A DNA stretch of 64,000 bases, taken from Acidobacteriota bacterium (GTDB lineage Bacteria > Acidobacteriota > Thermoanaerobaculia > Multivoradales > UBA5704). Positions 5,601 to 61,332 of this stretch are shown here, one piece after another. Where the stretch lies: the NCBI GenBank assembly GCA_040005235.1, contig JBDTZG010000028.1, positions 6,940 to 70,939 on the forward strand, given 5' to 3'. How positions within the stretch are numbered: position 1 is the stretch's first letter; every line of letters begins with the position of its first letter. Made by a program: the position numbers and the translations under genes. The notes below the pieces were generated by a model. The model was not told the origin of the DNA and did no database searches. It was given only the letters and a program-made list of their open reading frames with translations.

Positions 5601-6356
5601 CTAGCGTATCGCGCCCCGGCCCTCGAACGCCCCGGTGGCGAGCACCTGGCGCCAGAGGCGACGCCAGGCGAACCAGGTGTGGCCGCCATGCGTGTGGAGC
5701 ACGCGATCGGGAGGCAGCAGCGAGGCGAGCAGGCGGTGCCCCCGGCGCAGACGGTCGGAATCGCCGAATCCAAGCAGCAGCGGAGGGCGCTCTGCTCCCG
5801 GGGTCTCAAACCCTTGGAACCACACCCAGAGCCGCCGCAGATCGCGCGGCTCGGGTGGAGCCGCGGGATGCCATTTGCGCGGGCCGCCGGCTTTCTCGAT
5901 CTCGTCCAAAATCGGATCGTCGCCCAGGTAGGGGGAAAGGAGGACCAACCCTTCTACCTCCCCGGGTCGGTCGCAGGCGTAGAGCGACGCGCCCAAACCG
6001 CCGAGCGAGATCCCGACGAGCCAGATCTTCTCGACCCCGCGGGCGCGGGCCGGCGCGATCACGTCCTGATGGAGACGCTCGACGATCGAGCCGTCGGCGA
6101 AATAACCGAAATGGCTTTCGACCGCGATCACCTCGCACGGAGATCCGCTGTCGCGGAACGCTTTCAGGAAGCCGCCCTTGTGGAAGAAGTCTTCTTTATG
6201 GTCGCCGAGACCGGGCAGGAAGACGACCAGGCATCGGCCGCCCGGCGCGCCGGGCAGGTCGGCGGTGGGGATTGGCACGGTGGTCGGCCCCGGTCGCGGT
6301 GGGCAGCCGGCGAGGATCAGCGCGGCGAGCAATCCCCAGATCGTTCGTAGGCTCAC
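5601..6356 (-). CDS. alpha/beta hydrolase lipoprotein (esterase-like)
   Basis: GTG 6356 gives VSLRTIWGLLAALILAGC, a lipobox (LAGC). Nucleophile elbow GISLGG. GTGA overlap with the upstream gene's stop. Confidence 0.7.
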   Translation of the reverse strand: MSLRTIWGLLAALILAGCPPRPGPTTVPIPTADLPGAPGGRCLVVFLPGLGDHKEDFFHKGGFLKAFRDSGSPCEVIAVESHFGYFADGSIVERLHQDVIAPARARGVEKIWLVGISLGGLGASLYACDRPGEVEGLVLLSPYLGDDPILDEIEKAGGPRKWHPAAPPEPRDLRRLWVWFQGFETPGAERPPLLLGFGDSDRLRRGHRLLASLLPPDRVLHTHGGHTWFAWRRLWRQVLATGAFEGRGAIR

Positions 6357-23209: not shown

Positions 23210-23249
23210 CCACGGGCTCCTGGTTTAATTCTTGAAGGGCGAATTTCAA

Positions 23250-23331
23250 GGGCCGAAGGCCCATCCAATAATAGCCTAGGGCAACGCCCTAGGTTCCCGG
23301 TTCGCGCCCACCCCAAAAGGGCTGAAGGCCC
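23250..23331. repeat. REP-like hairpin cluster (3' side of the RAYT gene)
   Basis: GGGCCGAAGGCCC (23250-23262), CCTAGGGCAACGCCCTAGG (23275-23293), GGGCTGAAGGCCC (23319-23331). Confidence 0.65.
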
Positions 23332-47670: not shown

Positions 47671-48114
47671 CTAGATTCCGCCGCGCTCCGCCAGGGCGCG
47701 GGAGTCGTCCTCGGTGAACGGCTGCTCGGCCATCCGCGCGACCAGGCGCTCGTGGTTCCAGACGATCAGGTGGTCGATCTGCGCCATCACCACCACGTCG
47801 CCGCTCATCCCGGCGCTCTCCCGCAGGATCTGCGGAATCACCAACCGCCCCTGGTCGTCCAACCGCACCTGCTGGCCGTAGTAGCTCGCGCGCTCCAGGA
47901 ACCGCTGCTTCGAGGGATCGGCCGAGGGCATCGCTTGGAGCTTCCCCTCGATCTCTTCCCAGACCGGCAGCGGGTAGAGCCGTGCGCAATCGCCGTGGAC
48001 CGAGGTCACGAACAGCTCGCGCCCATACCTCTCCTCAACGAACCGGCGGAAATCCGTCGGCACCTTGAGGCGGCCCTTCTCGTCGATCTTCGCTGGTGAG
48101 CTACCCCGGAACAT
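47671..48114 (-). CDS. mraZ: division/cell wall cluster transcriptional regulator MraZ
   Basis: MFRGSSPAKIDEKGRLKVP and a second DxxxR-type repeat DDQGRLVIP. First gene of the dcw cluster. Confidence 0.95.
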   Translation of the reverse strand: MFRGSSPAKIDEKGRLKVPTDFRRFVEERYGRELFVTSVHGDCARLYPLPVWEEIEGKLQAMPSADPSKQRFLERASYYGQQVRLDDQGRLVIPQILRESAGMSGDVVVMAQIDHLIVWNHERLVARMAEQPFTEDDSRALAERGGI

Positions 48115-48165
48115 GACCCCCGCCTTTGGGTCCAGCTATTTGGAGGGTGATTCTAGTCTGGTTGC

Positions 48166-48190
48166 TCCACTTCTGTCCAATTTTATCCAC
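48166..48190 (-). promoter_or_regulatory. putative MraZ operator: three direct pentamer boxes at 10-bp phase, overlapping a candidate -35
   Basis: The minus strand reads GTGGA-N5-TTGGA-N5-GTGGA (plus-strand tccac 48166, tccaa 48176, tccac 48186). A candidate -10 TAGAAT lies at 48150-48155. Confidence 0.5.
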
Positions 48191-48427
48191 TAGGGGCCAC
48201 CAGGACCCCGCGGTGGGCTCTGAAACCTCTTTCCGCAGGGTCGGCGCGGGCGGCAGAGTCGGCACGGGTGTTGAGTACCCGGTCCGGGCACGAGGCGTAC
48301 CTCAGGGGCTGTCGGCGCAAAAATTTGCGAAATTTGCCGCCCAGGGGTCCCGCTGTCTCGCATTGACGCGCCGAAGCACCGTAACATTGCAGAGACCACA
48401 CAATTGATTCGACCGAGGAGACCCCCC

Positions 48428-49888
48428 GTGTCGCAAAATCCTGTGCCGCTGCTTGCCGTGGTGTTGCGGAATCTCCGCGAGCGAGCCGGCTGGACCCAAG
48501 TCCGGCTCGAACGCGAGGCTCGCCTCAGCAAGGGATCGCTCTGCCGGCTGGAGAAGGGCAGCCAGACGGTCGATCGTTTCCTGCTCAATCGGCTGGCGAA
48601 GGTGATGAGAATCGCCGAGGGTGACGTGGAACAGGCGCTCGCAGTGCTGGAGCAGCTCCCGGCGGAGACCGGCGCCGGTTCGTCCGCGGACCTGCCGGTT
48701 CGCGACCGGCAGACGATCGAAACCGTCAGCGCGCGCTTTTCCCGCATGGTTCGCGAGAAGGCCCAGAACCGAATCGGGGGGAAGGTCCGCGCCCGGCGCT
48801 GGCGTCTCGACCGCGCGGCGGCCGCCGTGGCGTGGCAGCGGCTGCGCAAAATGCCCTCCGAGGATCGCCGGCTGATCGTTAAAGCGGTTGAGGCCTTTCA
48901 CACCTGGGCGGTGGTGGAACGGCTTTGCGAGGAGAGCGTAAGGGCGGCGGCCAGCGATATGGAGGAGGCCCGTAGGCTGGCGCAGCTTGCCCGGCAGGCC
49001 TCGACGGCCGCGAGCGGTGCCGAGCGAAGATATAAGTCGCTCGAAAATTACGCGGCGGCCTTCGAAGCGAACGCCTGGTGCGCTGCCGGCGAATTTCGGA
49101 AAGCCGAGCAGATTTTTGCCGAGGTCGATGCGCTCCATGGAGAAGGGCTGGACATCGCGGCAGTACCGGTCGATTGGGCCAGGCCACTGATCTTTCGAGC
49201 GGTGCTTATGATTTATCGGGCGAACCTCGATCCGGCATTGGAATGGCTGAACGAGGCGCTTTCGCTCACTCGCTCGCCGACCGTCAAGACTTGGGCGTTA
49301 ATCTGGCGAGCCGCTGTGCTCAAGCGGAAGCTCCAATTTCCCGCGGCGCTTGAGGAGCTGGAAAAGGCTCGGCCGTACGCCGAGCTTGCAGGCGATGCCC
49401 GGCTTCGATGGGCCATCGCCTTCAATGAAGCGGGTTATTTATGCGAAGCCGGCCATTTGGCGGAGGCTGCCGCCCGCCTTCCAGCCCTGAAGCTGGCAGC
49501 GTTGGAGCTCGGAGGAGCTCTGGATCGCCTGCGGCTCCGCTGGTTGACCGCGAGAGTGGCTGCTGCTTCAGGCCTGTTCCAGGAAGCCGCGACGAACCTC
49601 TCCGAGGTTTGGAATGCCTTTGCCGACCGGAACCTCTGGCTCGACGCGGCGATCGCGGTTCTCGAGCTGGCCAGCATCAACCTGGAGATGGGTCTGTCTG
49701 CCCAGGTCAAGAAGCTCGCCACGGCATCTGCTCACGTCTTCGCGGCGCAGACCCTGCCCGACCACCTTCTCGCGGCGGTTCGACTATTCTGGCAGGCCGC
49801 CCTTCAGGAAGCGGCCACTTCACAAATGGCGCGACAGCTGGTTGGGGACCTTCGCCGCGCCATGGTGGCAAACGCCGAAGCCTCCTGA
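48428..49888 (+). CDS. long XRE-HTH regulator with helical-repeat (TPR-like) C-terminal domain (R1)
   Basis: HTH LRNLRERAGWTQVRLEREARLSKGSLCRLEKG. Family signature FHTWAVVERLCEESV. About 300 aa of helical repeats. GTG 48428 has RBS GAGGAG; the track start is TTG 48404. Confidence 0.75.
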   Translation: MSQNPVPLLAVVLRNLRERAGWTQVRLEREARLSKGSLCRLEKGSQTVDRFLLNRLAKVMRIAEGDVEQALAVLEQLPAETGAGSSADLPVRDRQTIETVSARFSRMVREKAQNRIGGKVRARRWRLDRAAAAVAWQRLRKMPSEDRRLIVKAVEAFHTWAVVERLCEESVRAAASDMEEARRLAQLARQASTAASGAERRYKSLENYAAAFEANAWCAAGEFRKAEQIFAEVDALHGEGLDIAAVPVDWARPLIFRAVLMIYRANLDPALEWLNEALSLTRSPTVKTWALIWRAAVLKRKLQFPAALEELEKARPYAELAGDARLRWAIAFNEAGYLCEAGHLAEAAARLPALKLAALELGGALDRLRLRWLTARVAAASGLFQEAATNLSEVWNAFADRNLWLDAAIAVLELASINLEMGLSAQVKKLATASAHVFAAQTLPDHLLAAVRLFWQAALQEAATSQMARQLVGDLRRAMVANAEAS

Positions 49889-49907
49889 AGTCGTCGTCTC
49901 GCTTGGG

Positions 49908-50195
49908 CTAGGTCCCACACAGACCGTTCGGGTTGATCTCGCAGCCGACTTCGCCGAGAGGAGGCTTACTTCTCGGGCGACCGGAGTCGGAAGCACTGCG
50001 TCCGTCTGGGCTTGCGCCGCGGCGCCCGCTGGGCTCGATCTCGCAACCGCTCGGCGCCCACAGCGCGGAAAAGAATCTCCCGGCTTTGGCGAGCAGGTTC
50101 CCGAGATCCCACGGTGCGGCGGAGGCCTGGGTCGGGAAGGCGAGGACCACGACGAGAAGCAAGAGCGGCAGACGGCGGGGCGACGAAGCGGACAT
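49908..50195 (-). CDS. small secreted Cys-loop repeat peptide (pepA, 95 aa)
   Basis: Signal peptide MSASSPRRLPLLLLVVVLAFPTQASA, then FFSALW, module GCEIEPSGRRGAS and the terminal GCEINPNGLCGT. Paralogous to 58620-58952. Confidence 0.65.
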   Translation of the reverse strand: MSASSPRRLPLLLLVVVLAFPTQASAAPWDLGNLLAKAGRFFSALWAPSGCEIEPSGRRGASPDGRSASDSGRPRSKPPLGEVGCEINPNGLCGT

Positions 50196-50395
50196 GACCG
50201 ACTCCTATTCCGAGGGGACCGGCGCCGCGGCCTCCATGGCCGAACGGGCACCCTGCGAGTTCTTCCAGGCGCGCCTGGGCGAAGCTTGGACGCAAAATTT
50301 TGTGCTGCCAGGCGTACGGTGGGGTCTATCTTAGGAGCAAGCCCCGCCCTGCACGCTCTTTCGATACGATTCCCTCCAGAAACTCGGGAGGTGAC

Positions 50396-51220
50396 ATGAA
50401 CGACGCCTTGGATCGCCGCGCGGCAGGCTTGGTGATGCAGTTGTTTCGCTTCATGGCCGGCCGCCACCAGCACGACCTGAGCGAACGGACCGGGATCGAC
50501 ATAAAGCGGATTTCGCGTTACGAGCAGGGAAAAGTTCTGCCTCTTCGGCCGACGCTCGAACGACTCGCTGCGGGCGTCGGCGTCTCCGCGACCCGGCTCG
50601 ATCAGCTTCTCGCGTTGATTCGCACCGTGTGCGCCGAGGGCGAGGCGGCGACCGCCCAAAAGGAGCACGCCACAGCAGACCCCGACGAGTCCGATTGGCC
50701 GGACGATCTCGCCGAGCTGGCGGCGGAGATCGCCGAAGACCTACAGCCCGAGATTTACCAAGCCCTGAAGGAATTGAACGCCGAGCTGAACGCGCCGCCT
50801 CCGCCACTCGCCCCGGAAGCGGCGCGCGCCCAGGCTCGGGAGCTATGGGGAAGGTTCGAACCCTTGCCGGATCGCGTTCGCCGCCTGGTGATCGAACATG
50901 GCAAGGAGTACCAAACCTGGGCCTTTTGCGAACGGCTCTGCGAAGCAAGCCTCGACGCCGGATCGCGCGCGCCGGAGGACGGTCAGGCCTTGGCCGACCT
51001 GGCGCTCTCGGTCGCCGAGGCCGCCCAAGGGTCCGACGTGCTGCGCCAGCGCCTGACCGCCTTCGCCCTCGCCTGCGCCGCCCACGCGGATGTCCTCGCC
51101 GGGGACTCGGAAGAGGCCGCCGAGAAGCTGGGCCGGGCCAAGGCGCTCTGGACGGCCGGGGACGGCACCGACGATCTCGACCTCGGCCAGATCGCCGATC
51201 TGGTGCCCGCCGACTCGTAA
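50396..51220 (+). CDS. short XRE-HTH regulator paralog (R2)
   Basis: RBS GGGAGG lies before ATG 50396. HTH HQHDLSERTGIDIKRISRYEQG. Signature YQTWAFCERLCEASL. It lacks the long C-terminal repeat domain. Confidence 0.7.
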   Translation: MNDALDRRAAGLVMQLFRFMAGRHQHDLSERTGIDIKRISRYEQGKVLPLRPTLERLAAGVGVSATRLDQLLALIRTVCAEGEAATAQKEHATADPDESDWPDDLAELAAEIAEDLQPEIYQALKELNAELNAPPPPLAPEAARAQARELWGRFEPLPDRVRRLVIEHGKEYQTWAFCERLCEASLDAGSRAPEDGQALADLALSVAEAAQGSDVLRQRLTAFALACAAHADVLAGDSEEAAEKLGRAKALWTAGDGTDDLDLGQIADLVPADS

Positions 51221-51229
51221 GGAGTCCCC

Positions 51230-51631
51230 TCAGTTCGGCGCCCGCCGACTTGCGTCCGGCGGAAGCTCCGGCGGCGGCGGGCCGAGACGGCGCTCCAGGT
51301 CGGCGATCTTCTGTTCGAGATCTTCCGCCAGGATTTCGAGAGCCTGACAGAGCCGGTCCTCTTCCTCGGTCACCGTCGAGAGCCGCCGGGTCGCGGCGAG
51401 CCCGGCGAACGCCTGCTTTGTATGCCAGAGGTCGTCGATGCCGGCGCGCGTTCCCGCCTTGAGCCACGGTTCTCCGAACCCCGAGCCGTCTTCCAGCTCC
51501 AGCGCTTCCTCGGCGATCTTTTCGCAGGCATCCTGGACGCGTTGGCGCAAACCCGGCCGGGTGAAATGGACCAGGACCGACTCGCGGAACGGCGCCATCT
51601 CTCTCCAGCGGCGCTTGATCGGGTTGGTCAT
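51230..51631 (-). CDS. hypothetical cytoplasmic protein (S1)
   Basis: 133 aa, with a 4-nt overlap with the upstream S2 gene. No recognisable motif. Confidence 0.5.
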   Translation of the reverse strand: MTNPIKRRWREMAPFRESVLVHFTRPGLRQRVQDACEKIAEEALELEDGSGFGEPWLKAGTRAGIDDLWHTKQAFAGLAATRRLSTVTEEEDRLCQALEILAEDLEQKIADLERRLGPPPPELPPDASRRAPN

Positions 51632-52062
51632 CCTGGGGATGCCCGTCGCTCAGTCCGCACGGCGGCCCGGTGCCGGCCCAGGCGTCTCTCCTGCACCAGA
51701 CCCAGGAATGCGTCCCGATTCGCGGCCCCATGGGTCATCAGCGCCGCGAAGACCCGAAGGTTCAGACGGGCACCTTCCGGGGGCGGTGTACCTTCCAAGA
51801 GGGCGAGCAGTCGGGCGGCCAGCTCCGGCAAGATGCCCCCTCGCCCCTGGCGCAACAATACGGTTCCCAGCTCGATGTAGGCGTCCGCCGCTGCCATCAC
51901 CTCGCCCGATGCGCGCCAGGTTCCCGCGGCGCGGCCGAACAGTCGCGCCGCCTCTTCGAGGTTCCCATCGTCCCGCTCGCGCTCGGCCCGGTCGAAGATC
52001 TCTCCGGCGGCCCGCCGCAACTCGCCGGGTGCGAGGGGAGAGGCCGGACTTACAGAGGCCAT
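51628..52062 (-). CDS. hypothetical helical protein (S2), resembles the C-terminal module of R1/R3
   Basis: 144 aa. ...DDGNLEEAARLFGRAAG...AADAYIELGTVLLRQG...LAARLLALL... parallels the R1 and R3 C-termini and paralog S3. Confidence 0.55.
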   Translation of the reverse strand: MASVSPASPLAPGELRRAAGEIFDRAERERDDGNLEEAARLFGRAAGTWRASGEVMAAADAYIELGTVLLRQGRGGILPELAARLLALLEGTPPPEGARLNLRVFAALMTHGAANRDAFLGLVQERRLGRHRAAVRTERRASPG

Positions 52063-52499
52063 TCCATTCCTTTTCTGTGCTTCCGGACGTCCGCGAGCAA
52101 CTCGCCTAGTAACGGCGAGCTCGGCGGGGTGATCTCGAGCAAGAGCAAAAGGTTGGAAAAAAGCTCGATTTCCGGCGGCGCCACGGCGAGCGTCGCCGGC
52201 TTGGCGGCGAGCCAGTCCGGCAGGTCGACACGTTCAAGGCGATAGACCGCGGCCAGCGAGAGCGCCGCTAGCCCTTCGAGCCAGGGTTGCTCCGCTTTGC
52301 CGAAGGCATGGACGGCGAGAATAAAACTCTCTTCTGCCTGGGACAGGTTGCCCGCCGCCGCGGCGCGCTCGGCAAAATCCATCGAGCGCCAAGCCAACCG
52401 GAAAAAAGCCGGATGCGCCGGTTCCTTAGCCGGCGCATCCGCGGGCCCTGCGAGCGCGAGAGGGGGTGCGGGTCGCCCGCAGGGGAAAAAGGAGTCCAT
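52050..52499 (-). CDS. hypothetical helical protein (S3), paralog of S2
   Basis: 149 aa. ...AAGNLSQAEESFILAVHAF...LAALSLAAVYRLE... has the same layout as S2. 13-nt overlap with S2. Confidence 0.5.
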   Translation of the reverse strand: MDSFFPCGRPAPPLALAGPADAPAKEPAHPAFFRLAWRSMDFAERAAAAGNLSQAEESFILAVHAFGKAEQPWLEGLAALSLAAVYRLERVDLPDWLAAKPATLAVAPPEIELFSNLLLLLEITPPSSPLLGELLADVRKHRKGMEWPL

Positions 52500-52694
52500 G
52501 CGTGCGAGGGTAGGTCCAGGGATTCAGCTTTCGCGCTAGCCTGCCGCTCGTGGATGGCGTAGTTATCCATTTCGATAACATTTCTTGGGATGCCGGGGAA
52601 CTTTCCCAGCTCGTCATGCCGAGCGAGAGCTCTGCACACTCCAGCGGAGGCGGGGGGGAGTTCCGGCACTACATTCAATATTGCAGGAACCACC

Positions 52695-53810
52695 CTAGGG
52701 CTGCAGGCCGCCGTTCCACGAAGTGTCCTTGAGCAGATCGGCCCAATTCACGTCGGCGCTCAGCACATTGAATTCGTCGCTGCCGTCCGAGAAGACGTTG
52801 AGGTGTGCCGCCCGCCGAAAGACCTCCTCGCCTTGAATTTCGAAGCCGGGCCGTAGCGGCGGCAAGATGTAGAGGCCCATCCACGGACTACCGGTTGGGT
52901 TACAGCCCGTCTGGCCGGAAGCGGTGCAGAAGGGGAGCGCCGTGATTTCGCCCGTCGTCAAGCGTCCCTGGGTATCGGTGTGCAGGCGCAGCAGGAAGGG
53001 GATTTCCAGGTCACTGTAGACACACACTCCGTCGTCATCGCAGGAAAGGGCAGAGTCATAGGCGTCAATCCGGTAAGTCAGCGGCTCCTCCGCCCGGTAG
53101 AGAGCGGTCTTGTAGGAAATAAAGGCGCAGAACGGATTGGGAATGGGTTCCGCCAGGCAGCCTGTCGGCCGAACCGTCCGCGCGAGGATCGAGTAGACCT
53201 TGAGGTCAAAGTCGGTCACTTCGGTATGGCAGGGAGAGAGTAGGTCGTCGACGGTCAAACCGCGTCCCGCGGTGTCCGCGTGGTCCGCCTGCGCGTCCTG
53301 GAGAGTGGTGATCCGAATCGAATTCTTCGGCTGAAAAGGGTCTGGCGGCTCCCGGGACAGGATGAGATCCACGAGCATCGAGAACCGGGTCGTCCCCTCG
53401 AGATTCGAAGACGCATCCCGCCGAACCAAGGTGGCCTGGGGCCGGCGATCCCTTCGGGGGTTCAAGAAGTCCTCGTCCTCGCGAAGGATCAGGTCGAACG
53501 CCAGCTGTTTCTCCTGTCGCTCGCGGTCGCCTTGAACCGTGGTGTGTCGCAACTGGCTGGTGCTGGCCAATCCTCTGTAGGTGCCGCCATTGGCGCTCGA
53601 CCGCCAGAGGAGGAGGCTCGACTCCCCGTAGGAAACCCCCATGCGGTGCAGCAACCTCCCCATTTGCCGCTCTTCGCAGGCGACCTGCTCGGACGTGAGG
53701 GGGCGGCCGAAGGGCTGGGCCACAGCATTGCGTACCGCACATGCGCCGAAGACCAGGGCCACGGCCCAAGCCGGCACCCGCCACCCTACGGCTGCAGGCC
53801 GCCGTTCCAC
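52695..53810 (-). CDS. secreted Cys-containing protein of unknown function (P1), tandem paralog of P2
   Basis: Collinear with P2 over the full length (QPFG.PLTSEQVACEERQMGRLLHRMGVSYGE ... NWADLLKDTSWNGGLQP). GTG start at 53810; an alternative is GTG 53777. Confidence 0.7.
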   Translation of the reverse strand: MERRPAAVGWRVPAWAVALVFGACAVRNAVAQPFGRPLTSEQVACEERQMGRLLHRMGVSYGESSLLLWRSSANGGTYRGLASTSQLRHTTVQGDRERQEKQLAFDLILREDEDFLNPRRDRRPQATLVRRDASSNLEGTTRFSMLVDLILSREPPDPFQPKNSIRITTLQDAQADHADTAGRGLTVDDLLSPCHTEVTDFDLKVYSILARTVRPTGCLAEPIPNPFCAFISYKTALYRAEEPLTYRIDAYDSALSCDDDGVCVYSDLEIPFLLRLHTDTQGRLTTGEITALPFCTASGQTGCNPTGSPWMGLYILPPLRPGFEIQGEEVFRRAAHLNVFSDGSDEFNVLSADVNWADLLKDTSWNGGLQP

Positions 53811-54889
53811 GAGGTGTCCTTGAGCAGGTCCGCCCAGTTGACGTCGGCACGTAGAATGTTCAAGTCAGGAAAGGCAACCGAGAAAAGGTTCAGGTGGGCC
53901 GCACGCCGAAAGACTTCCTCTCCCTGAACCTCGATGCCGGGTCTCAGGGGAGGTAAGACGTAAAGGCCCATCCAAGGACTGTCCTCCGGGCTGCATCCGG
54001 TTTGGCCCGACGCTGTGCAAAACGGCAGCAGCGAGACCTCCCCGGATGCCAACCGGCCTTGGGCGTCGGCTTGGATGCGAAACAGCAGTGAATTCTGCTC
54101 GTCGCTGTAAACGCACACGCCGTCTTCGTCGCAGGACAACGAGGAGAGATATACGTCGGCCCGATAGGTCAGCGGCTCCTCCGCGCGGTAGAACGCGGTT
54201 TTAAAGGAAATGAATCCGCAGACCGGGTTGGGAATGGGTTCCGCCAGGCAGCCCGTCGGCCGCACCGTCCGGGCGAGGATCGAGTAGACCTTTAGGTCGA
54301 AATCGGTCACCTCAGTATGGCAGGTATTCAAAAGGTCGTCGACGGTCAGACCGCGTCCGGCGGTGTCCGCGTGGTCCTCCGGCGCTTCCTGGAGGGTGGT
54401 GATCCGGATCGAATTCTTTGGGTGGAAAGGGTCGGGCGGCTCCGGGGACAGGATGAGATCTACGAGCATCGAGAACCGGGTCGTTCCCATCGGGTCGAGG
54501 TTCGACGCCGCGTCCCGCCGGACCAGCGTCGCCTGCGGGCGGCGTTCCCGCCGGGGGTTCAAGAAGTCTTCATCGGCGCGGAGAATCAGGTCAAACGCCA
54601 GCTGTTTCTCATCGCGCATCCGGATGTCTACGGTCGTCGTAGGATCGAAATAAAGGTGGTCCGTACTGGCCAAGCCTCTGTAGCTGCCGCCGTTGGCCGC
54701 CGATCGCCAAAGGTAGAGGCCAGCCTCGCCATATGAGACCCCCATACGATGAAGCAATCGCCCCATCTGGCGCTCCTCGCAGGCGACCTGCTCGGACGTG
54801 AGGGGGCTGCCGAAGGGCTGGGCCGCCATAATTCCCGGGGCGATGATTACCAGGAAGAGAATCGCGAACAACGCGCTTTTGGGTTTCAT
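53786..54889 (-). CDS. secreted Cys-containing protein of unknown function (P2)
   Basis: ATG 54889 with signal peptide MKPKSALFAILFLVIIAPGIMAAQ. The track ORF's N-terminal extension is rejected. Confidence 0.75.
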   Translation of the reverse strand: MKPKSALFAILFLVIIAPGIMAAQPFGSPLTSEQVACEERQMGRLLHRMGVSYGEAGLYLWRSAANGGSYRGLASTDHLYFDPTTTVDIRMRDEKQLAFDLILRADEDFLNPRRERRPQATLVRRDAASNLDPMGTTRFSMLVDLILSPEPPDPFHPKNSIRITTLQEAPEDHADTAGRGLTVDDLLNTCHTEVTDFDLKVYSILARTVRPTGCLAEPIPNPVCGFISFKTAFYRAEEPLTYRADVYLSSLSCDEDGVCVYSDEQNSLLFRIQADAQGRLASGEVSLLPFCTASGQTGCSPEDSPWMGLYVLPPLRPGIEVQGEEVFRRAAHLNLFSVAFPDLNILRADVNWADLLKDTSWNGGLQP

Positions 54890-55098
54890 AGCTTCCCCGC
54901 TGAACCTGTCTTCTGTTGGACCTGGAGAACGATGTCGAAGGAATAGAACGGCGAAACGATCTCGCAACTTCCCCCGTTGCAGGTTTTGTGGATGGGATCC
55001 CAATTGATGGTCTGGACTGCCGTCATGGTTCCCGTTGCCGGCGTGACCCACTGGACCTCGAACCGATCGGCCGTCGGTCCGAGGTTCAAGAGCGTCAA
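54886..55098 (-). CDS. small protein X, translationally coupled to P2; the true N-terminus is probably further upstream
   Basis: ATGA overlap with the P2 start. The frame stays open and protein-like up to about 55320, but the first ATG/GTG/TTG in frame is TTG 55098. Confidence 0.5.
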   Translation of the reverse strand: MTLLNLGPTADRFEVQWVTPATGTMTAVQTINWDPIHKTCNGGSCEIVSPFYSFDIVLQVQQKTGSAGKL

Positions 55099-55321
55099 GC
55101 GGTCTTGGTATTTCTGCGCCAGCCAGATCCGCGCGTCGAAAGCGTTGCGCGGGAGAAATATCGGTTTGGCGCTCGGAGACGTGGACTCTTTGGGGCATCC
55201 GTTCGCAGTGAACTCCGCCTCGGGCGCGTTCGATGCCGTGCTGGCCGCGCAGCGGATCGTGCTGTGGTGTAGATAGAGCAGGAAAAGCCGGTTCGGCTCC
55301 GGTCTCCGACCTGGATCGGCA

Positions 55322-56821
55322 TCAATCGGTATCCGTCGGAGATTGAGGGCCTTGATGTAGGTCGGGTCTCGCAGCGCTATTGGGCAGCCCTCCAGACCAA
55401 GCTGACCGGGACGAGGTGAGGCGCCCGAGCGGCAGCGCGTTGACGAATTTCTTGAGTACGCCGAGTTGGCGCCGAATGGTCGCGGGGGTGTTCGGGTCGC
55501 CTCCGGAGAGATATCCGAAATGGTCGTAGGTGGCGCCCTGGTCGAACAGAAACTCCCAGGCTTCGGCGCGCGCCGGTTCGGCGAGCTTTTCTGTCAGGGC
55601 GCCGTTGGTATGGGCGCGGGTGCCGCTCTTGCCTCCGACATCTGGGTTGCCGATGAACTGACCGGCGCCTTTGGTCGTAAACGGCTGTACCGCCACCAAA
55701 TGCCCGCCGGCGGCCAAGCGCGGGTATTTCGCTTCCTGAAAGGTGACCTGGGCAATCATGTCGCGCTGCCACTTGGCGACCTCGAGGGGATCGACGGTCT
55801 GGGCCTCCGGCTCGTTGGCGATCTCCCAATAGACGGTGTCGAAGCACCAGAGTTCTTGGACCGTCCACTCGATCACTTTGGCCTGGGCCACGCGCATGCG
55901 CTCGTTCGTCAGGGCCTCCTGGGTGCCTCGCGTGTCGTGGGTCACGAAGTACTCGGGCTTTGAGAACTTCACCGTCTCGAACGTCCCGTCCGACTTCGGC
56001 ATCATCCCCTTGCCGCCCCAGGGACCCTGGGAGAAGAAATCTCCCTCGAACGGCGCGAAGATGGTCACTTCGACGATCATCTTCCTCGGGTCCTGGGCGT
56101 AGGCCACGACATCGCGCAAGCGTTGGAAATACCGCGTGTTCGGCTTGTCCAGGCGCCAGAACGGGTAGGCGTTGGCCGGGAAGTTGGCGCAGTCGGGGCT
56201 CGCCACGGCGCTCGGGCAATAGAGGAACGGGACGTTGTTCGGGTTTTTCTCTCCGGCCAGGGCGATCCAGAGGCGGAGCTTGTTCAGGCCCGCTTCGAAG
56301 GCGGCTTGGATCGTCGTGGGGTAGTTGGTCCAGTTGCATTTGTCGGAGGAGAGTTCGAGGTGGCAGCCGTTGTCAGCCGAGACGCCGACGAGGGTCTGGA
56401 TCGTGTTGCGGTACGAAAAGTAGCGCGAGGCGAAAGGCAGGGCGGCGGTCGTTTTGCCGATCTTGATCGGGGTGATCGTCTGCGTGATGTTGCCGCAACC
56501 GGTGGCGGAAATCGTGGGATCGGCCGGAACGTCGGGGTCGGTGCCCAGCAGCTCGGGCGGATAGAGATCCTCCGAGTCGAGCGAATTCGGGTCGCCGTCG
56601 TAGGGGAGCAAGTCGTCGCCGAGGGTCCACAGCTCGGCGGGCAAGCTGGGGTCGGTGGTCGAGCCACCGTCGCCGAAGACGGAAGAGAGGGGTGGCTCTT
56701 CTTCGGGTCCGGGTGGGGGTTGGGCGGGAAGGGGGGCACCGACCGAGAGGAACGAAAGAAAGATGAAGGCGAGGGTCGCACGGTGGCAGAGGGATAAGAG
56801 TAGCGAGCGAGTTCGGTCCAC
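55322..56821 (-). CDS. secreted glycoside hydrolase clan GH-A (GH5-like) candidate
   Basis: Signal peptide, a Pro/Asp-rich linker and a TIM-barrel-like domain with YWEIANEPE (the NEP acid/base motif). GTG start at 56821 with RBS AAAGGA. Confidence 0.5.
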   Translation of the reverse strand: MDRTRSLLLSLCHRATLAFIFLSFLSVGAPLPAQPPPGPEEEPPLSSVFGDGGSTTDPSLPAELWTLGDDLLPYDGDPNSLDSEDLYPPELLGTDPDVPADPTISATGCGNITQTITPIKIGKTTAALPFASRYFSYRNTIQTLVGVSADNGCHLELSSDKCNWTNYPTTIQAAFEAGLNKLRLWIALAGEKNPNNVPFLYCPSAVASPDCANFPANAYPFWRLDKPNTRYFQRLRDVVAYAQDPRKMIVEVTIFAPFEGDFFSQGPWGGKGMMPKSDGTFETVKFSKPEYFVTHDTRGTQEALTNERMRVAQAKVIEWTVQELWCFDTVYWEIANEPEAQTVDPLEVAKWQRDMIAQVTFQEAKYPRLAAGGHLVAVQPFTTKGAGQFIGNPDVGGKSGTRAHTNGALTEKLAEPARAEAWEFLFDQGATYDHFGYLSGGDPNTPATIRRQLGVLKKFVNALPLGRLTSSRSAWSGGLPNSAARPDLHQGPQSPTDTD

Positions 56822-57041
56822 GGCGCTGTCCTTTCAAGGTTTCCGCGTTACGCGGAAGACTGCTGGAACGGTAGCAGCGCCGACGATATTTTCGCAAACA
56901 ATTTCATCACATTCGGTATGGCTTTCAGATTTCTGCGGCTCTGGGGTGACCTGGGAACTGAGACGGATGGGAGCGGGCGTTTTCTGCCCGCGGGGCGATG
57001 ACGATGAACGGTGAGGACCCTAAGAGCCAAATGCTCCCAAT

Positions 57042-57060
57042 GAGGAAACCAGGTTTCCTC
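57042..57060. promoter_or_regulatory. perfect 19-bp palindrome in the divergent GH5-like/R3 intergenic region
   Basis: GAGGAAACC-A-GGTTTCCTC, about 100 bp upstream of the R3 start. Confidence 0.4.
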
Positions 57061-57158
57061 TCTGTGCGGCGGGCAGGCGTCCCAATTTATTTGTTGTCAC
57101 GAAAAGTGCCTCAGCGGCAACAAGATGTATTAAAGACACCAGACCCCGGAGAACCGCG

Positions 57159-58613
57159 ATGCCCAAGGTGGACCTGCCGCCGACGAATGCGGCGCTATTG
57201 ATTTTGCGCATCCTGTGTCGCCTGACACAGGATGAGTTCGGCGAGCTGACCGGCATGAAGAGCCGGATCGTCGAGATCGAGAATGGCCGGTATGTCCTTA
57301 AGCGCGCCGAGCTCGAAGATCTGGTGGAGGAGCTCAAGGTGTCGGCCTACGCGGTGCCGGTCGCCCTCGGCCTATCGGAGCTGGTGTTGCCGTCGACCGA
57401 CAAGACCCCCCACCCCTGGGAGGCGACGCCCGACGCGCGGTTTCAGGCCGAGCGCGCGACCCTCGAATCGTCCGCCATCGTGCGCCGTCTGTTCCTCGCC
57501 GAAGCGCGCGCGGAGCGCTACGCGGCGGACCGCGAGGAGGCCGAGCGCCTCTGGAAGCTGCTTGCGCCGCTCAATCGCGACCGGCGGCGGGTGATGGCCC
57601 GGATCGTCGATTTCTCGACCTGGGCGGTGGTCGAGCGCCTCTGCATCGAGAGCCTCAGGGGAGCGCCTCGGGATCCCGGGGCCGCCCGCTCGCTCGCCGA
57701 GCTGGCCGTTGAGGTGGCCCAGAGGATTCCGCCGCTGCCCAGGTTCAGCGATCGGGTGGAAGGGTACGCCCAGGCCCACTTGGGCAACGCCTTTCGAGTC
57801 GGGAACGACTTTGACGAGGCGGTTCGCGCTTTCGCGCTCGTCGCGAAACTTTGGATCGAGTTCCTGCCGGGCGAGGCCTGCCCGTTTGACGTGACGCTGA
57901 TCCCCGACCTAGAAGCTTCTCTGCGCCGCGATCAGCGTCAATTCTCCTTAGCGTTCGCTGGGCACGACCGGGCTCTTTCCTTCGCTGTCGAGGATGCGAT
58001 CCGCGGGCGCATCCTCCTCAATAAGGCAGTGACATTCGAGCATTCCGGCGATCCAGTTGGTGCGGTTGCAACTCTCAGCGCTGCTCAGCCTCTTATCGAC
58101 ACGAGCAACGAAACCCGGCTGGGTTGTGTCGCGCGTTTCAACTTGGCGGTCAACCTCCTCCATCTTGGAAACGCCTTAGATGCCGAGCCGCTGATCGCCG
58201 AGGTGCGGGCGCTTGCGATCGAACAGCGAAACGAGCTTGACCTGATCCGGGTCCTTTGGCTCTCCGGCCGCCTTGCCGCCGCGCAAGGAGATCGGGCGAA
58301 GGCGATGGTCTCGATCGATGACGCGGCCTGTCGCTTCGCCGAACAGGGCCTCGGATATGACGCCGCACTGGCGGTGCTCGACCTCGCGGGGCTGCTCTTG
58401 GAAGAAGGCAACCCGAGAGAGGCAGCCCGGAGGGTGGCCGAGGTGCAACCCACTTTCCACGTGCGAAACATTCACCGGGAGGAACTGGCGAGCCTGGTTC
58501 TGTTCCTCCAAGCCGTCGAAACCGAAGCGGCGACCGCCGCGCTGGCGCGCGCGGCGGCCGAGGCCTGGAGGTTGTTCGGCACGCCCGTTCCTTTCGGAAG
58601 TCTGGCCGACTGA
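57159..58613 (+). CDS. long XRE-HTH regulator with helical-repeat (TPR-like) C-terminal domain (R3)
   Basis: HTH LTQDEFGELTGMKSRIVEIENG. Signature FSTWAVVERLCIESL. The C-terminal repeats are collinear with R1. Confidence 0.75.
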   Translation: MPKVDLPPTNAALLILRILCRLTQDEFGELTGMKSRIVEIENGRYVLKRAELEDLVEELKVSAYAVPVALGLSELVLPSTDKTPHPWEATPDARFQAERATLESSAIVRRLFLAEARAERYAADREEAERLWKLLAPLNRDRRRVMARIVDFSTWAVVERLCIESLRGAPRDPGAARSLAELAVEVAQRIPPLPRFSDRVEGYAQAHLGNAFRVGNDFDEAVRAFALVAKLWIEFLPGEACPFDVTLIPDLEASLRRDQRQFSLAFAGHDRALSFAVEDAIRGRILLNKAVTFEHSGDPVGAVATLSAAQPLIDTSNETRLGCVARFNLAVNLLHLGNALDAEPLIAEVRALAIEQRNELDLIRVLWLSGRLAAAQGDRAKAMVSIDDAACRFAEQGLGYDAALAVLDLAGLLLEEGNPREAARRVAEVQPTFHVRNIHREELASLVLFLQAVETEAATAALARAAAEAWRLFGTPVPFGSLAD

Positions 58614-58619
58614 AATGAA

Positions 58620-58952
58620 CTACTGGCCGCAGCGACCCTCTGGGTCGACGACGCAACCCGCGTCGCGAAGGATCGGCGCCGGGGCACTCGACGAACCGCA
58701 GCGGCCGTAGGGATCGAGGCTGCAGCCCACGTCGCTGAGGATCGGCACCGGGGCGCTCGACGGGCCGCGGCCGCCGTGGGGGTCGAGGCTGCAGCCCTCC
58801 TCCTCCCAGAGGGCCGAAAGAAACGACCAGCCGCGGGCGAACAGGTCGGGGAGGGTGCGATCGAGCGGCAAGGCGCCGGCCGGGAAGGCACTGAGGAGGA
58901 AGAGGGCTAGCAGAGCGACGGCGAGGGCGAGGTGACGCTTCGGTTGGGGCAT
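58620..58952 (-). CDS. small secreted Cys-loop repeat peptide (pepB, 110 aa)
   Basis: Signal peptide MPQPKRHLALAVALLALFLLSAFPAGA, then FLSALW and three modules: GCSLDPHGGRGPSS, GCSLDPYGRCGSS and the terminal GCVVDPEGRCGQ. The modules are encoded by 69-bp tandem DNA repeats. Confidence 0.7.
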   Translation of the reverse strand: MPQPKRHLALAVALLALFLLSAFPAGALPLDRTLPDLFARGWSFLSALWEEEGCSLDPHGGRGPSSAPVPILSDVGCSLDPYGRCGSSSAPAPILRDAGCVVDPEGRCGQ

Positions 58953-59028
58953 GGCGGTGGGCTCCTGGTCAGCCCGGGAACCTCCGGCCGGGATGGCCGG
59001 CGGCCCGGTACGAAGGGGTTCAGAGGGT

Positions 59029-59046
59029 AACCCAAGTTTTTGGGTT
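59029..59046. promoter_or_regulatory. AT-rich inverted repeat between pepB and R4
   Basis: AACCCAA-GTTT-TTGGGTT, with perfect 7-bp arms, 22 bp upstream of the R4 ATG. Confidence 0.4.
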
Positions 59047-59067
59047 CATTTTTCTCTTGGAGGGATC

Positions 59068-59955
59068 ATGGAACGGAAATCCGGCAGAACGCGAGACGTT
59101 CGCTCAGGACTCAGTGCGGCACCCACCCCTGGCGCCGCCGCGAAGGGGGGAAGGGCCGCGGCCAAAGCGCGGGACGCCGAGTACTCGGCTCTGTTGGTCC
59201 GGTATATGGATGCGACGGTCGGCCCGCGGCACGACCAGTTCGCGGAGTTGGTCGAGATCAGCGCGGCGCGGGCGAGCCTCTACCGCTACGGCTACAAGGT
59301 GCCCCGGCCCGAGACGAAGGCCCGTTTCTCCGGCCGGGTCGGGCTGCCGATCGAATGGTTCGAGGCGATGACCGCCGACTCGTTGTTTCTCCGCGGCAAA
59401 AGCTCAAAGCCGGCGGGAAGTACTCCCGCAGCCCTGGCGGAAGACCTCTCCCGCCGGCTCGCGGGCCAGCTCGCCCCGCGGTTCGCGGCGTTGCGCAGCG
59501 TAGCCCCCGCCGCCCCTCCTCCTCCTCCTCCTTCGCTCGAACGGGCGGCGGCCGATCGAGCCGAGGCGGACCGGCATTGGACCGAAATCGAGCCGCTCAC
59601 CGCCGCCGAGCGCGCCCTCGCGGTGCCGGAGATCCCGAGGTTCCACTCCTGGGCGCTGGTCGAGCTGCTCTGCGGAAAAAGTGTAGAGGCCGCGCCCGTG
59701 TCGCCGGCCGAAGCGCTCGCCCTCGCCAAGCTGGCCATACGACTGGCCCGCCGGGTCCAAGCAAGCCAAGGATTTCGCGACCGCCTGATGGGCTACGCCC
59801 TCCTCCACTCGGCCGCCGCACTCAAGAGCCTGAACGACCTGCCGCGAGCCCGGGAAGCCCGCGCGCGCGGGCTACGGCTTTTCGCGGCGGGGCGGAAGGA
59901 GGATCCGGGGTTGCTGGATGAAGCGATCGCCGAGGGACTCGCGTCGTCGTCGTAG
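59068..59955 (+). CDS. short XRE-HTH regulator paralog (R4)
   Basis: RBS GGAGGG lies before ATG 59068. HTH-like HDQFAELVEISAARASLYRYG. Signature FHSWALVELLCGKSV. Confidence 0.65.
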   Translation: MERKSGRTRDVRSGLSAAPTPGAAAKGGRAAAKARDAEYSALLVRYMDATVGPRHDQFAELVEISAARASLYRYGYKVPRPETKARFSGRVGLPIEWFEAMTADSLFLRGKSSKPAGSTPAALAEDLSRRLAGQLAPRFAALRSVAPAAPPPPPPSLERAAADRAEADRHWTEIEPLTAAERALAVPEIPRFHSWALVELLCGKSVEAAPVSPAEALALAKLAIRLARRVQASQGFRDRLMGYALLHSAAALKSLNDLPRAREARARGLRLFAAGRKEDPGLLDEAIAEGLASSS

Positions 59956-59985
59956 GGCCGGCGGCATTCTGGGAAAGGGGAGCGC

Positions 59986-60013
59986 GGGCGCCGTCGAGGA
60001 GCGGGCGGCGCCC
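59986..60013. terminator. GC hairpin between convergent R4 and Q1 (bidirectional terminator candidate)
   Basis: GGGCGCCG-N12-CGGCGCCC. An identical copy lies 722 bp away. Confidence 0.45.
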
Positions 60014-60023
60014 GGGAATGCAT

Positions 60024-60584
60024 TCAGGGTGTGGATGCCTGAGCGAGGAAGGCACCAAAGACATCAGTAGGCACGTGGTCGATCTGGGCGCCGGGGCTGT
60101 TTGCGGCTTCAGAGAAGAAGTCCTCTATCGCTTGGACCGACCGAGCGAACGCATCGCTGCAAATTGTTGGAAATGCAGCGCCGAAGCCGAAGGTTTTTGT
60201 CACTTTGCTCGTGCCTTTCCTACCGAACCAAGTGACCGCGGAGACGAAGACTTCGCCTTGTCCTGGAACGTCCCGATAAGCGCAGTGGCCACGCTCGGAA
60301 CCGAATCGGTTCTCGGACAGGGCCTGCTGTAGCCGGCGGACGGCATCCGAAGTACCCCGGGCTCGAATCAGGGTCGTTTGGCCGGGCGACCGCTGGGTGC
60401 TGATCAACAGGCCATCGCGAAAGATGACGTAGTCGATATTTGTCTTGAAGCCGGTCACCTCGTCGTCGACGTGGGCCGTGCGACGAACGAGGTAGCTTTC
60501 GGGTGCCGGCGTCTGAGCCAGCGCCAGCGTGGGCAGGATCAGTGCCAGGGCATAGAGCCAGAAAACGGGTCTAGTTGCTCTCAT
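60024..60584 (-). CDS. secreted protein of unknown function (Q1), tandem paralog of Q2
   Basis: ATG 60584 with RBS GGAGG. Signal peptide ...LALILPTLALAQ. Near-identical to Q2 over 186 aa. Confidence 0.7.
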   Translation of the reverse strand: MRATRPVFWLYALALILPTLALAQTPAPESYLVRRTAHVDDEVTGFKTNIDYVIFRDGLLISTQRSPGQTTLIRARGTSDAVRRLQQALSENRFGSERGHCAYRDVPGQGEVFVSAVTWFGRKGTSKVTKTFGFGAAFPTICSDAFARSVQAIEDFFSEAANSPGAQIDHVPTDVFGAFLAQASTP

Positions 60585-60707
60585 ACGACACCTCCGGGGC
60601 GAGTATTCCACGGAACTACACGAACAATACCGGTTTGCCGGTTACAGCTTGTCAGTGGAGCGAGACATCCGGTTGTCGCCCAGGATTCTTACGGCGAAGG
60701 GACAAGC

Positions 60708-60745: not shown

Positions 60746-61306
60746 TCAGGGTATGGATGCCTGAGCGAGGAAGGCACCAAAGACATCTGTAGGCACGTGG
60801 TCGATCTGGGCGCCGGGACTGTTCGCGGCCTCAAAGAAGAAATCCGCGATCGCTCGGACCGAGCGAGCAAATGACTCGCTGCATTGGGACGGGAATGCGG
60901 CGCCAACGCCGAAAGTTTTCGTCACCTGGCTGGTTCCCGTTCTTCCGAACCAAGTTACCGCTGAGACAAAGACTTCGCCTTGCCCCGGGAAGTCGCGATA
61001 CGAGCAGCGATTACCCGCGGTGCCGAACCGGTTCTGGGAAAGCACCTGCTGCAGCCTTCGGACGGCATCTGCCGTGCCCCGGGCTCGAATCAGGGTCGTT
61101 TGGCCCGGCGACCGTTGGGTGCTGATCAATAGGCCGTCTCGAAAGATGACGTAGTCGATATTTGTCTTGAAGCCGGTCACCTCGTCATCGACGTGGGCCG
61201 TCCTCCGGACGAGGTAGCTCTCGGCTGCCGGTGTTTGTGCCAGGGCCAACGTTGGCGGGTTCAGCCCCAGGGTACAGATCCAGAAAAGGTAACTTCTCGC
61301 TCTCAT
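60746..61306 (-). CDS. secreted protein of unknown function (Q2)
   Basis: ATG 61306 with RBS GGAGG. Signal peptide and the same sequence family as Q1. Confidence 0.7.
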   Translation of the reverse strand: MRARSYLFWICTLGLNPPTLALAQTPAAESYLVRRTAHVDDEVTGFKTNIDYVIFRDGLLISTQRSPGQTTLIRARGTADAVRRLQQVLSQNRFGTAGNRCSYRDFPGQGEVFVSAVTWFGRTGTSQVTKTFGVGAAFPSQCSESFARSVRAIADFFFEAANSPGAQIDHVPTDVFGAFLAQASIP

Positions 61307-61332
61307 TCGCCACCTCCAAGCCACAAAGTGCT

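Follow-up and report, generated by a model that had tools for sequence, protein, structure and literature searches.

We analysed a 64,000-nucleotide stretch of contig JBDTZG010000028.1 (the window), which comes from a metagenome-assembled genome (MAG) of Thermoanaerobaculia (Acidobacteriota) with a GC content of about 66%. The window contains an island of regulator and peptide genes, and in this island two copies of a 14-bp palindrome with the consensus CGCAAA-WW-TTTGCG are found, at 48316-48329 (CGCAAAAATTTGCG) and at 50291-50304 (CGCAAAATTTTGTG). Based on a comparison with related loci in other genomes, we conclude that these two sites are probably operator copies, bound by a dimer of an XRE-type helix-turn-helix (HTH) protein that is encoded in the same gene cassette. 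The original prediction for this DNA had described a 12-mer, CGCAAA(A/C)(A/W)(A/T)TTT, upstream of three island promoters, and had proposed it as a candidate operator for the HTH paralogs of the island or as a promoter element.

The cassette is present in several diverged copies per MAG in Thermoanaerobaculia, and the order of its genes is conserved: often two or three small minus-strand genes (s2, s1), a long regulator with an HTH and a part that resembles tetratricopeptide repeats (TPR), a convergent gene pep, and a short HTH paralog. In the window these are represented by R1, the long regulator (48428..49888, plus strand), pepA (49908..50195, minus strand) and R2, the short paralog (50396..51220, plus strand). 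Both in the window and in over 30 related loci, pep follows immediately downstream of the long regulator and is convergent with it. For comparison we used 95 related loci, of which 52 came from a genome scan and 43 from a metagenome scan that started from an alignment of short regulators. Within a cassette, the palindrome is found at two fixed positions. The class A position lies about 110 nt upstream of the start of the long regulator, and the class B position lies in the middle of the divergent region between pep and the short regulator, about 100 nt from either start codon in subfamilies 1 and 2. The distant cassettes L026, L028, L031, L033 and L036-L040 had no palindrome common to both positions under the criteria used.

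One line of evidence for an operator is the distribution of the palindrome. We found 16 perfect and 9 one-mismatch copies in 631 kb, every one of them in a cassette intergenic region; by our own estimate from base composition, about 0.002 perfect copies would be expected in this amount of sequence. In 833 kb, 41 of the 46 matches to a position weight matrix (PWM) that scored at least 16 bits were located 20-260 nt upstream of a family HTH gene, an interval that accounts for 4% of the sequence. At protein identities of 40-75%, the information content is about 1.6-2 bits per position over the 14-mer and near zero in most of the flanks, and paralogous cassettes with 40-48% protein identity keep the palindrome positions while the flanking intergenic DNA has diverged. 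The symmetry of the site is also maintained. Over 40 sites, counted without symmetrisation, the left half-site has C0 in 37 and G1, C2 and A3 in all 40, and the partner half has G13 in 34, C12 in 33, G11 in 40 and T10 in 33. Both inverted half-sites are therefore conserved, as is expected of the dyad-symmetric operator of an XRE-type HTH protein, and in the promoter regions of the gene or operon that encodes the regulator the palindromes keep a conserved spacing.

The window was also scored with a PWM trained on 32 sites, all from other genomes. This matrix scores 26.8 bits at 48316 and 24.5 bits at 50291, and the maximum in 200 local-composition shuffles was 22.1 bits. The third-best match in the window (48432-48445, CGCAAAATCCTGTG, 16.3 bits) covers the R1 start codon and codons 2-6; it falls within the range of the shuffles and is without conservation in orthologs.

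The four sequences that had originally been reported, CGCAAAAATTTG at 48316 (site 1), CGCAAAATTTTG at 50291 (site 2), CGCAAACAATTT at 56893 (site 3) and the separate element AACCCAAGTTTTTGGGTT at 59029, are all present. The 12-mer consensus fits exactly at site 3 alone, with one mismatch each at sites 1 and 2, and we replaced it by the 14-bp dyad. With up to one mismatch the 12-mer has 3 matches in the window versus 0.59 expected, a number that was reached in 1/100 whole-window shuffles. Sites 1 and 2 are the only occurrences of CAAAWWTTTG in the 64-kb window, and because both are 14-bp dyads, the common orientation that had been attributed to the 12-mer is meaningless for them. Nor is there one motif common to three island promoters: the second cassette of the island has its own variant, described below, and site 3 is a degenerate half-site that has 9/12 identities to site 1 in register. 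The extension cgaaatttgc noted after site 1 is not kept in orthologs. As candidate operators for the HTH paralogs, sites 1 and 2 stand, on the strength of their fixed-position conservation and of the co-variation of their arms; site 3, which scores 4.0 bits and ranks 20th in the window, is at background and drops out.

The class A site, 112 nt before the start codon of R1, is kept in 12/14 aligned upstream regions of long regulators. It is embedded in a series of boxes at regular distances. A left box (GGCGTACCTCAGGGG, 48294..48308, plus strand; consensus GGCGTACC-NN-AGGGG) starts always exactly 22 nt before the palindrome. Downstream, the box TGTCTCGCA (48354..48362, plus strand) lies in the -35 region of the R1 promoter, with a core CGCA(A/T) that resembles a half-site, and the -10-like hexamer TAACAT (48382..48387, plus strand; TAATAT in subfamily 2) follows 66 nt downstream of the palindrome start, within a box with the consensus GCACC(G)TAA(C/T)AT. 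In subfamilies 1 and 2, the spacing from the palindrome start is +39/40 for the TGTCTC box (TGTCTCGCA) and +65 to +67 for the -10-like box. If these boxes are read as a promoter, R1 transcription would start near 48394, placing the centre of the palindrome near -71.5. Loci of subfamily 2 have a second copy of the palindrome 83-85 bp further upstream, or about 8 helical turns. We also considered an RNA hairpin formed by the inverted repeat TGTCTCGCA...TGCAGAGACA upstream of R1 and rejected it, since substitutions in L007, L008 and L009 break its pairs.

The class B site is separated by 96 nt from the start codon of pepA and by 105 nt from that of R2, and is flanked on both sides by conserved boxes. 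The right box, GGCGTACGGTGGGG plus TATCTTA (50311..50333), contains two -10-like hexamers, TACGGT on the plus strand, 10 nt after the palindrome, and TAAGAT on the minus strand, 23 nt after it. The first has a counterpart (TACGGT, TACAGT or TACCTT, that is, TAnnnT-like) exactly 10 nt to the right of the palindrome in most subfamilies, and subfamilies 1, 3 and 4 have a minus-strand TA(A/T)GAT at 22-23 nt on the same side. Read by eye, these hexamers would belong to promoters. Because -10-like hexamers can be read on both strands beside the class B site, the geometry failed to decide between activation and repression.

On the other side, the leader of pep contains a box (sense GGGTGCCCGNNCGGCCATGGAGGC, 50230..50255, minus strand) that is kept even in distant cassettes. 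A consensus of about GGGGTGCCCGCNCGGCCATGRRGGYC is found for it in L001-L039, including those distant cassettes that are without the palindrome. An RNA structure at this box was rejected (a 5-bp hairpin only, with a covariation term of -0.02), and an Rfam scan of 48100-59200 gave no match even at E-values up to 1. The ATGGCCG in the class B region was likewise rejected as the start of a small open reading frame, since the window and L005 have it in different frames with respect to the short regulator.

A further line of evidence comes from the outer bases of the dyad. Across family HTH genes and the dyads upstream of them, the sites share the architecture NNNN-(A/T-rich 6)-NNNN with arms that are specific to the subfamily. 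The arms CGCA..TGCG are found in the R1/R2 cassette of the window and in subfamilies 1-3, together with a recognition helix of the short regulator of the form (I/V)D(Q/T/I)(K/R)R(I/W)SRYE (IDIKRISRYEQG in R2); subfamily 4 (L020/L025) has the related dyad CGCGAATTCTCGCG. In L022 the arms are GTCG..CGAC, at class A (GTCGAAATTTCGAC) as well as at class B (GTCGAATTTTCGAC), and the short-regulator helix is LDRRTIGRYE. L024 and L061-L064 have GT(G/A)G..C(C/T)AC with the helix V(D/E)R(A/G)LIS(Q/R)YE and related forms; the full dyad in L024, L061 and L062 is GT(G/A)GATTAATC(C/T)AC. The arms GGGG..CCCC occur in L030, L045, L052 and L032, with a short-regulator helix distinct from those of the CGCA, GTCG and GT(G/A)G classes; class A and class B were seen together in L045 and L052, and L032 is also listed with both. 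GACG..CGTC was found in L079, upstream of the long regulator, and CCCA..TGGG at R4 of the window and in L006, with the helix ISAARASLYRYG. In three of these classes, CGCA, GTCG and GGGG, both positions of one cassette carry the same arms. The arm classes CGCA, GTCG, GTGG, GGGG and CCCA go with distinct helices in both the short and the long regulators, in a sample of few independent clades.

The arms also bear on which of the two regulators reads the palindrome. Within the CGCA class the helix of the short regulator is nearly constant, whereas that of the long regulator varies (SKGSVCRLEKG, SQGAVSRLEHG, PPTAVSKMERG), and for this reason we favour the short paralog (R2 type). We would put the chances that it is the main reader at roughly even. 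More broadly, we infer that the binder is encoded in the cassette, with the short paralog as the main reader of the palindrome and the peptide as a signal.

Several observations weigh against reading the palindrome as an operator. The window alone gives the sites a resemblance that is no better than chance, because in 219/300 composition-matched shuffles of the four island intergenic regions (only these were shuffled, so that their lower GC was kept) two regions share an 11/12 match. The sites in other loci are related by descent, so the counts given above are not counts of independent events. The GGCGTAC boxes in the flanks show the same degree of conservation as the palindrome itself. In subfamily 3 the class A interval has 8 extra bp, and these do not make up a full helical turn. 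Few independent clades support the assignment to the short paralog, and the palindrome overlaps positions that, partly by our own reading, could be core promoter elements. Finally, in L006, which is the locus most syntenic with the window, the R1 ortholog has neither the class A palindrome nor the GGCGTAC box (5740-6000), and the core TGTCTCGCATTGACGG...TAACAT is kept. The class A site would therefore be dispensable for R1 expression in at least one lineage, and would modulate the promoter rather than constitute it.

The overlap with promoter-like positions raises the question of whether the palindrome is itself a core promoter element, such as a non-canonical -35 of a particular sigma factor, an UP-like AT tract, or back-to-back elements of divergent promoters. 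At class B, the TAnnnT-like hexamer 10 nt to the right would put CGCAAA at -35; the -35 region of the long-regulator promoter (TCTCGCAA/T) has the same CGCA(A/T) core; and the GGCGTAC box 22 nt to the left is spaced from CAAAAT much as a -35 is from a -10. The dyad symmetry, however, does not speak for such an element, and both halves are kept even where there is a single direction of transcription; in the window, mraZ on the left has its own promoter, TGGACA-18-TAGAAT. The mirror position on the left is without a consistent -10, and a clear -10 follows about 52 nt after the class A site, which puts this site outside that core promoter. In addition, within a single genome the arms change from one regulator subfamily to another, which a shared sigma factor would not explain, and the cassettes contain no sigma factor gene. 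We therefore regard a core promoter element as improbable, though it is the best of the alternatives. In a scan of 47900-60200 for the sigma-70 consensus there was no promoter at site 1 or site 2. The sole match was the mraZ promoter (48150-48179, minus strand), which has the same sequence in L006. We also tried sigma-54 and ECF readings of the conserved boxes, and by eye the spacings fit neither consensus.

It is less probable still that an unlinked global regulator or nucleoid protein binds the palindrome and controls the cassettes incidentally. Three cassette subfamilies with different long-regulator helices do have an identical CGCAAAATTTTGCG, and the palindrome is also found before genes that are not part of a cassette. 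Nevertheless, there are no copies in the 48 kb of the window outside the island, the 41 of 46 strong matches described above are immediately upstream of family HTH genes, the arm variants follow the cassette subfamily, and the helix of the short paralog is conserved exactly where the operator is conserved.

Chance resemblance among AT-rich intergenic stretches of a GC-rich genome is very hard to credit as an account of the three sites together. The shuffles of the island intergenic regions and the background PWM score of site 3 speak for it; for sites 1 and 2 it is refuted, since these are conserved across genomes and dyad-symmetric, hold a fixed position and have PWM scores that no shuffle reached. 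The way in which site 3 matches them is still most simply described as chance. Equally implausible is the proposal that the palindromes mark boundaries of recombination or of a mobile element on either side of the long-regulator/pep module and mediate cassette exchange or duplication: the class A and B copies with their similar left boxes do bracket this pair in direct orientation, and class B regions have been duplicated to new places, but the cassettes come without a recombinase or transposase, -10-like boxes and start codons lie at fixed distances, the second, distal copy at many loci is in helical phase, and no target-site duplications were seen. A miniature inverted-repeat transposable element or a repetitive extragenic palindromic element was rejected, as copies are found at fixed promoter positions only and the flanks differ by subfamily.

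Site 3 (CGCAAACAATTTCA, 56893..56906) had been listed as an element of the divergent region between the GH5-like gene and R3, the long regulator of the second cassette. Its position upstream of R3 is not conserved: it lies 72 nt upstream of the start codon of a GH-like gene (55322..56821, minus strand; 'GH5-like' in the original prediction), in a segment that has no counterpart in L006. The synteny of that locus with the window extends over mraZ, R1, pepA, R2, s1, s2, R3, pepB and R4, without s3, sec1, sec2 and the GH-like gene; upstream of R3 the proximal ~135 nt align and the segment with site 3 does not. A clue to its origin is provided by L014, where a near-perfect palindrome, CGCAAATTCTTGCG, stands at 11747 before the GH homolog. 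The L014 copy (11747-11860) has a class B right flank, along with part of the HTH of a short regulator (SGVDQRRWSRW); it is a duplicated class B regulatory region that was placed before the GH-sec operon. Site 3 has the ACGATAT left context and the CGCAAA half in common with this copy, and its right half has decayed. It is homologous to the full palindrome of L014 by descent and probably weak or non-functional. We interpret it as the decayed copy of a class B region that had at one time been taken up in front of the GH-like/secreted-protein operon.

Homologs of GH and sec recur beside cassettes in L014, L023 and L019. In the window, the GH-like gene is the first in a minus-strand run of GH, sec2, sec1, s3, s2 and s1 that occupies 51230-56821. 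A Pfam search with the GH-like gene gave no match.

The palindrome and its right box are portable: they have been duplicated before other genes at L014:11747, L058:461 and L058:4886, as would be expected of the operator of a regulon. Both copies in L058 (461-474 and 4886-4899) are perfect CGCAAAATTTTGCG with a right box CACGTAC(A/G)GT, and both precede non-cassette genes. One of the downstream genes encodes a protein of about 130 aa that is also found in L008 and L009, and the other has a signal-peptide-like start. These copies are candidates for extra members of the regulon.

The second cassette (57159..59955) consists of R3 (57159-58613, plus strand; 484 aa), pepB (58620-58952, minus strand; 110 aa) and R4 (59068-59955, plus strand). 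Its variant palindrome, AACCCAAGTTTTTGGGTT (59029..59046), has the core CCCA-AGTTTT-TGGG; the AACCCAA-N4-TTGGGTT that had been singled out as a separate element of the pepB/R4 region is this palindrome. The region between pepB and R4 is 98% identical between the window (58953-59067) and L006 (11730-11844), with 3 differences in 118 nt, and the proteins on either side are less similar (77% for pepB and 87.5% for R4). Such a pattern would suggest either very strong constraint or recent exchange. We found no palindrome common to the R3 upstream and pepB/R4 regions; upstream of R3 there are CCCAA half-sites and a perfect 19-bp palindrome, GAGGAAACCAGGTTTCCTC (57042-57060), about 100 nt from the gene. 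This palindrome is kept in L006 and differs from the AACCCAA-N4-TTGGGTT of the same cassette.

If the two palindromes of the R1/R2 cassette are operator copies, a single cassette protein that binds both positions would couple the expression of receptor, peptide and paralog in an autoregulatory loop of the PlcR-box/RRNPP kind. At some loci the operator would also control cargo, such as the GH/sec operon in L014 and the genes beside L058:461 and 4886. Specificity would be set by the 4-bp GC-rich outer arms around an AT-rich centre, and since the subfamilies use different arms, paralogous cassettes would be insulated from one another. A class A centre near -71.5 would correspond to the geometry of a class-I activator or of looping. 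At class B, if both hexamers are used, the palindrome would cover the -35 region of the short-regulator promoter and some 20 nt at the start of the pep transcript, a geometry that suits a repressor.

The known element that most resembles the 14-mer is the PlcR box. This box is a 16-bp palindrome (TATGnAnnnnTnCATA, core ATGhAwwwwTdCAT) with specific outer bases and a required A/T centre, it is found upstream of regulated genes at a variable distance from the -35 box, and plcR itself is autoinduced (PMC2464732). Like PlcR-PapR of the Bacillus cereus group, the system described here combines a 14-16-bp palindrome with specific outer bases and an A/T-rich centre and a regulator with an HTH and a predicted TPR-like part beside the gene of a small, putatively secreted peptide, and the PlcR-PapR-DNA structure 3u3w is among the Foldseek matches of the R1 model. 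The two differ in several respects: there is no sequence relationship beyond the HTH; the host is an acidobacterium rather than a member of the Firmicutes; a second HTH paralog, the short one, is part of the cassette; in place of one linear C-terminal peptide, the precursors, which measure about 95-128 aa, contain two or three Cys-pair repeats; and each genome has several cassettes whose operator arms differ by subfamily. By analogy, we take the PlcR box to be the closest functional analogue of the 14-mer.

Two other kinds of systems provide partial parallels. The paralogous HTH regulators Rgg2 and Rgg3 act on one operator in a peptide promoter, and PrgX uses two operator sites on the same helix face, with looping. 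The cassette resembles Rgg2/Rgg3-SHP and PrgX in its two HTH paralogs and in distal and proximal palindromes 83-85 bp apart; it differs in that the short paralog is without the C-terminal TPR half and the two paralogs need not bind the same site. With the operators of XRE/Cro-CI proteins (434, P22, SinR and the C-proteins of restriction-modification systems) it shares a 14-bp dyad with conserved outer 4-5 bp, an AT-rich centre and a dimeric XRE HTH, but the operator here is tied to multidomain regulators of ~275 and ~485 aa and to a secreted-peptide gene, not to a phage switch or a restriction-modification controller.

In the literature consulted, RRNPP systems are described only for the Firmicutes and their mobile elements (PMC10075063, PMC9765709), and a signature with five parts has been given for them: a propeptide of 10-100 aa, Sec secretion, a receptor of 250-500 aa, C-terminal peptide-binding TPRs, and adjacent genes (PMC10075063). 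The cassette agrees with three of the five, namely receptor length, adjacency and a TPR-like fold, the last by prediction only. The size of the propeptide is borderline, at 95 aa for pepA, 110 aa for pepB and ~100-128 aa for the homologs versus the 10-100 aa limit, and in taxon and in sequence homology the cassette does not agree. A search of one literature library found no paper linking RRNPP with Acidobacteria. In its anatomy the cassette resembles an RRNPP/PlcR-box circuit; we do not class it as an RRNPP member. The HTH alone matches sequences in the PDB. A more ambitious proposal, which we consider tentative and more doubtful than the operator reading itself, is that these cassettes make up a large, undescribed RRNPP-like signalling family in Thermoanaerobaculia, with a cytoplasmic HTH-TPR receptor, a secreted precursor from which two or three disulfide-looped peptides of the form GC-x-(I/L/V)-(D/E/N)-P-x-G-R-C would be released, a short paralog and a private 14-bp operator with outer arms that co-diversified with the regulators, organised as several insulated 'pherotype' circuits that drive operons of secreted proteins. 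If peptide signalling is confirmed, RRNPP-type logic, with its HTH-TPR receptor, a secreted peptide encoded next to it, a palindromic box and autoinduction, would extend beyond the Firmicutes and into a Gram-negative phylum.

Judged from its sequence, the 14-mer would represent a new operator class within a known kind of system, and the apparent co-diversification of operator and regulator across paralogous cassettes is its notable feature. If the peptide-signalling reading holds, the family would be a natural case of co-diversification keeping paralogous circuits apart. A weak resemblance within the window is now replaced by a defined cis-element, with a PWM, two fixed positions and subfamily variants, that can be used to map the regulon of a regulator family which is uncharacterised and has expanded strongly in abundant soil Acidobacteriota. 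With the operator variants and recognition helices given above, the specificity code can also be tested directly.

We examined the proteins of the island using domain, structure and sequence searches. R1 (486 aa) contains an HTH_31, XRE-type HTH followed by a TPR-like superhelix/helical repeat domain; XRE HTH domains were also found in R2 (274 aa) and R3. The AlphaFold2 model of R1 is all-helical, with the HTH and a TPR-like superhelix (pLDDT 83.5), and in addition to 3u3w its Foldseek matches include RapJ-peptide 4gyo (TM 0.51/0.67) and generic TPR proteins. Pfam TPR matches were obtained for R3 alone, every one of them under the curated cut-offs. The 38 homologs of R1 in the protein database are annotated merely as HTH regulators of Thermoanaerobaculia or Acidobacteriota, and the PDB sequence matches are XRE HTH proteins only (C.BclI, C.AhdI, HipB and 434 repressor), over the HTH part only.

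The pepA gene encodes a predicted secreted precursor of 95 aa, with an N-terminal signal-like region that by eye resembles a Sec signal (MSASSPRRLPLLLLVVVLAFPTQASA|APW) and two GCEI(E/N)P-type Cys repeat motifs. In pepA, pepB and their homologs there are 2-3 repeats of the form GC-x-(I/L/V)-(D/E/N)-P-x-G-(R)-C, with the two Cys about 8 residues apart and Pro/Ala-rich linkers between repeats. They look like multi-copy precursors of disulfide-looped peptides, for which GCEIEPSGR and GCEINPNGLCGT are candidates. The precursors have no match in Pfam.

The island begins where the dcw cluster ends with mraZ (47671-48114, minus strand). Two pairs of tandem paralogs were found, sec1 and sec2, which are 79% identical, and the proteins at 60024-60611 and 60746-61324, which are 82.5% identical. 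Elsewhere in the window, Rfam gives a match to the small RNA Acido-Lenti-1 at 23249-23293 (minus strand; 39.6 bits versus a gathering score of 37), within a stretch of lower GC (0.56-0.57) at 22-24 kb.

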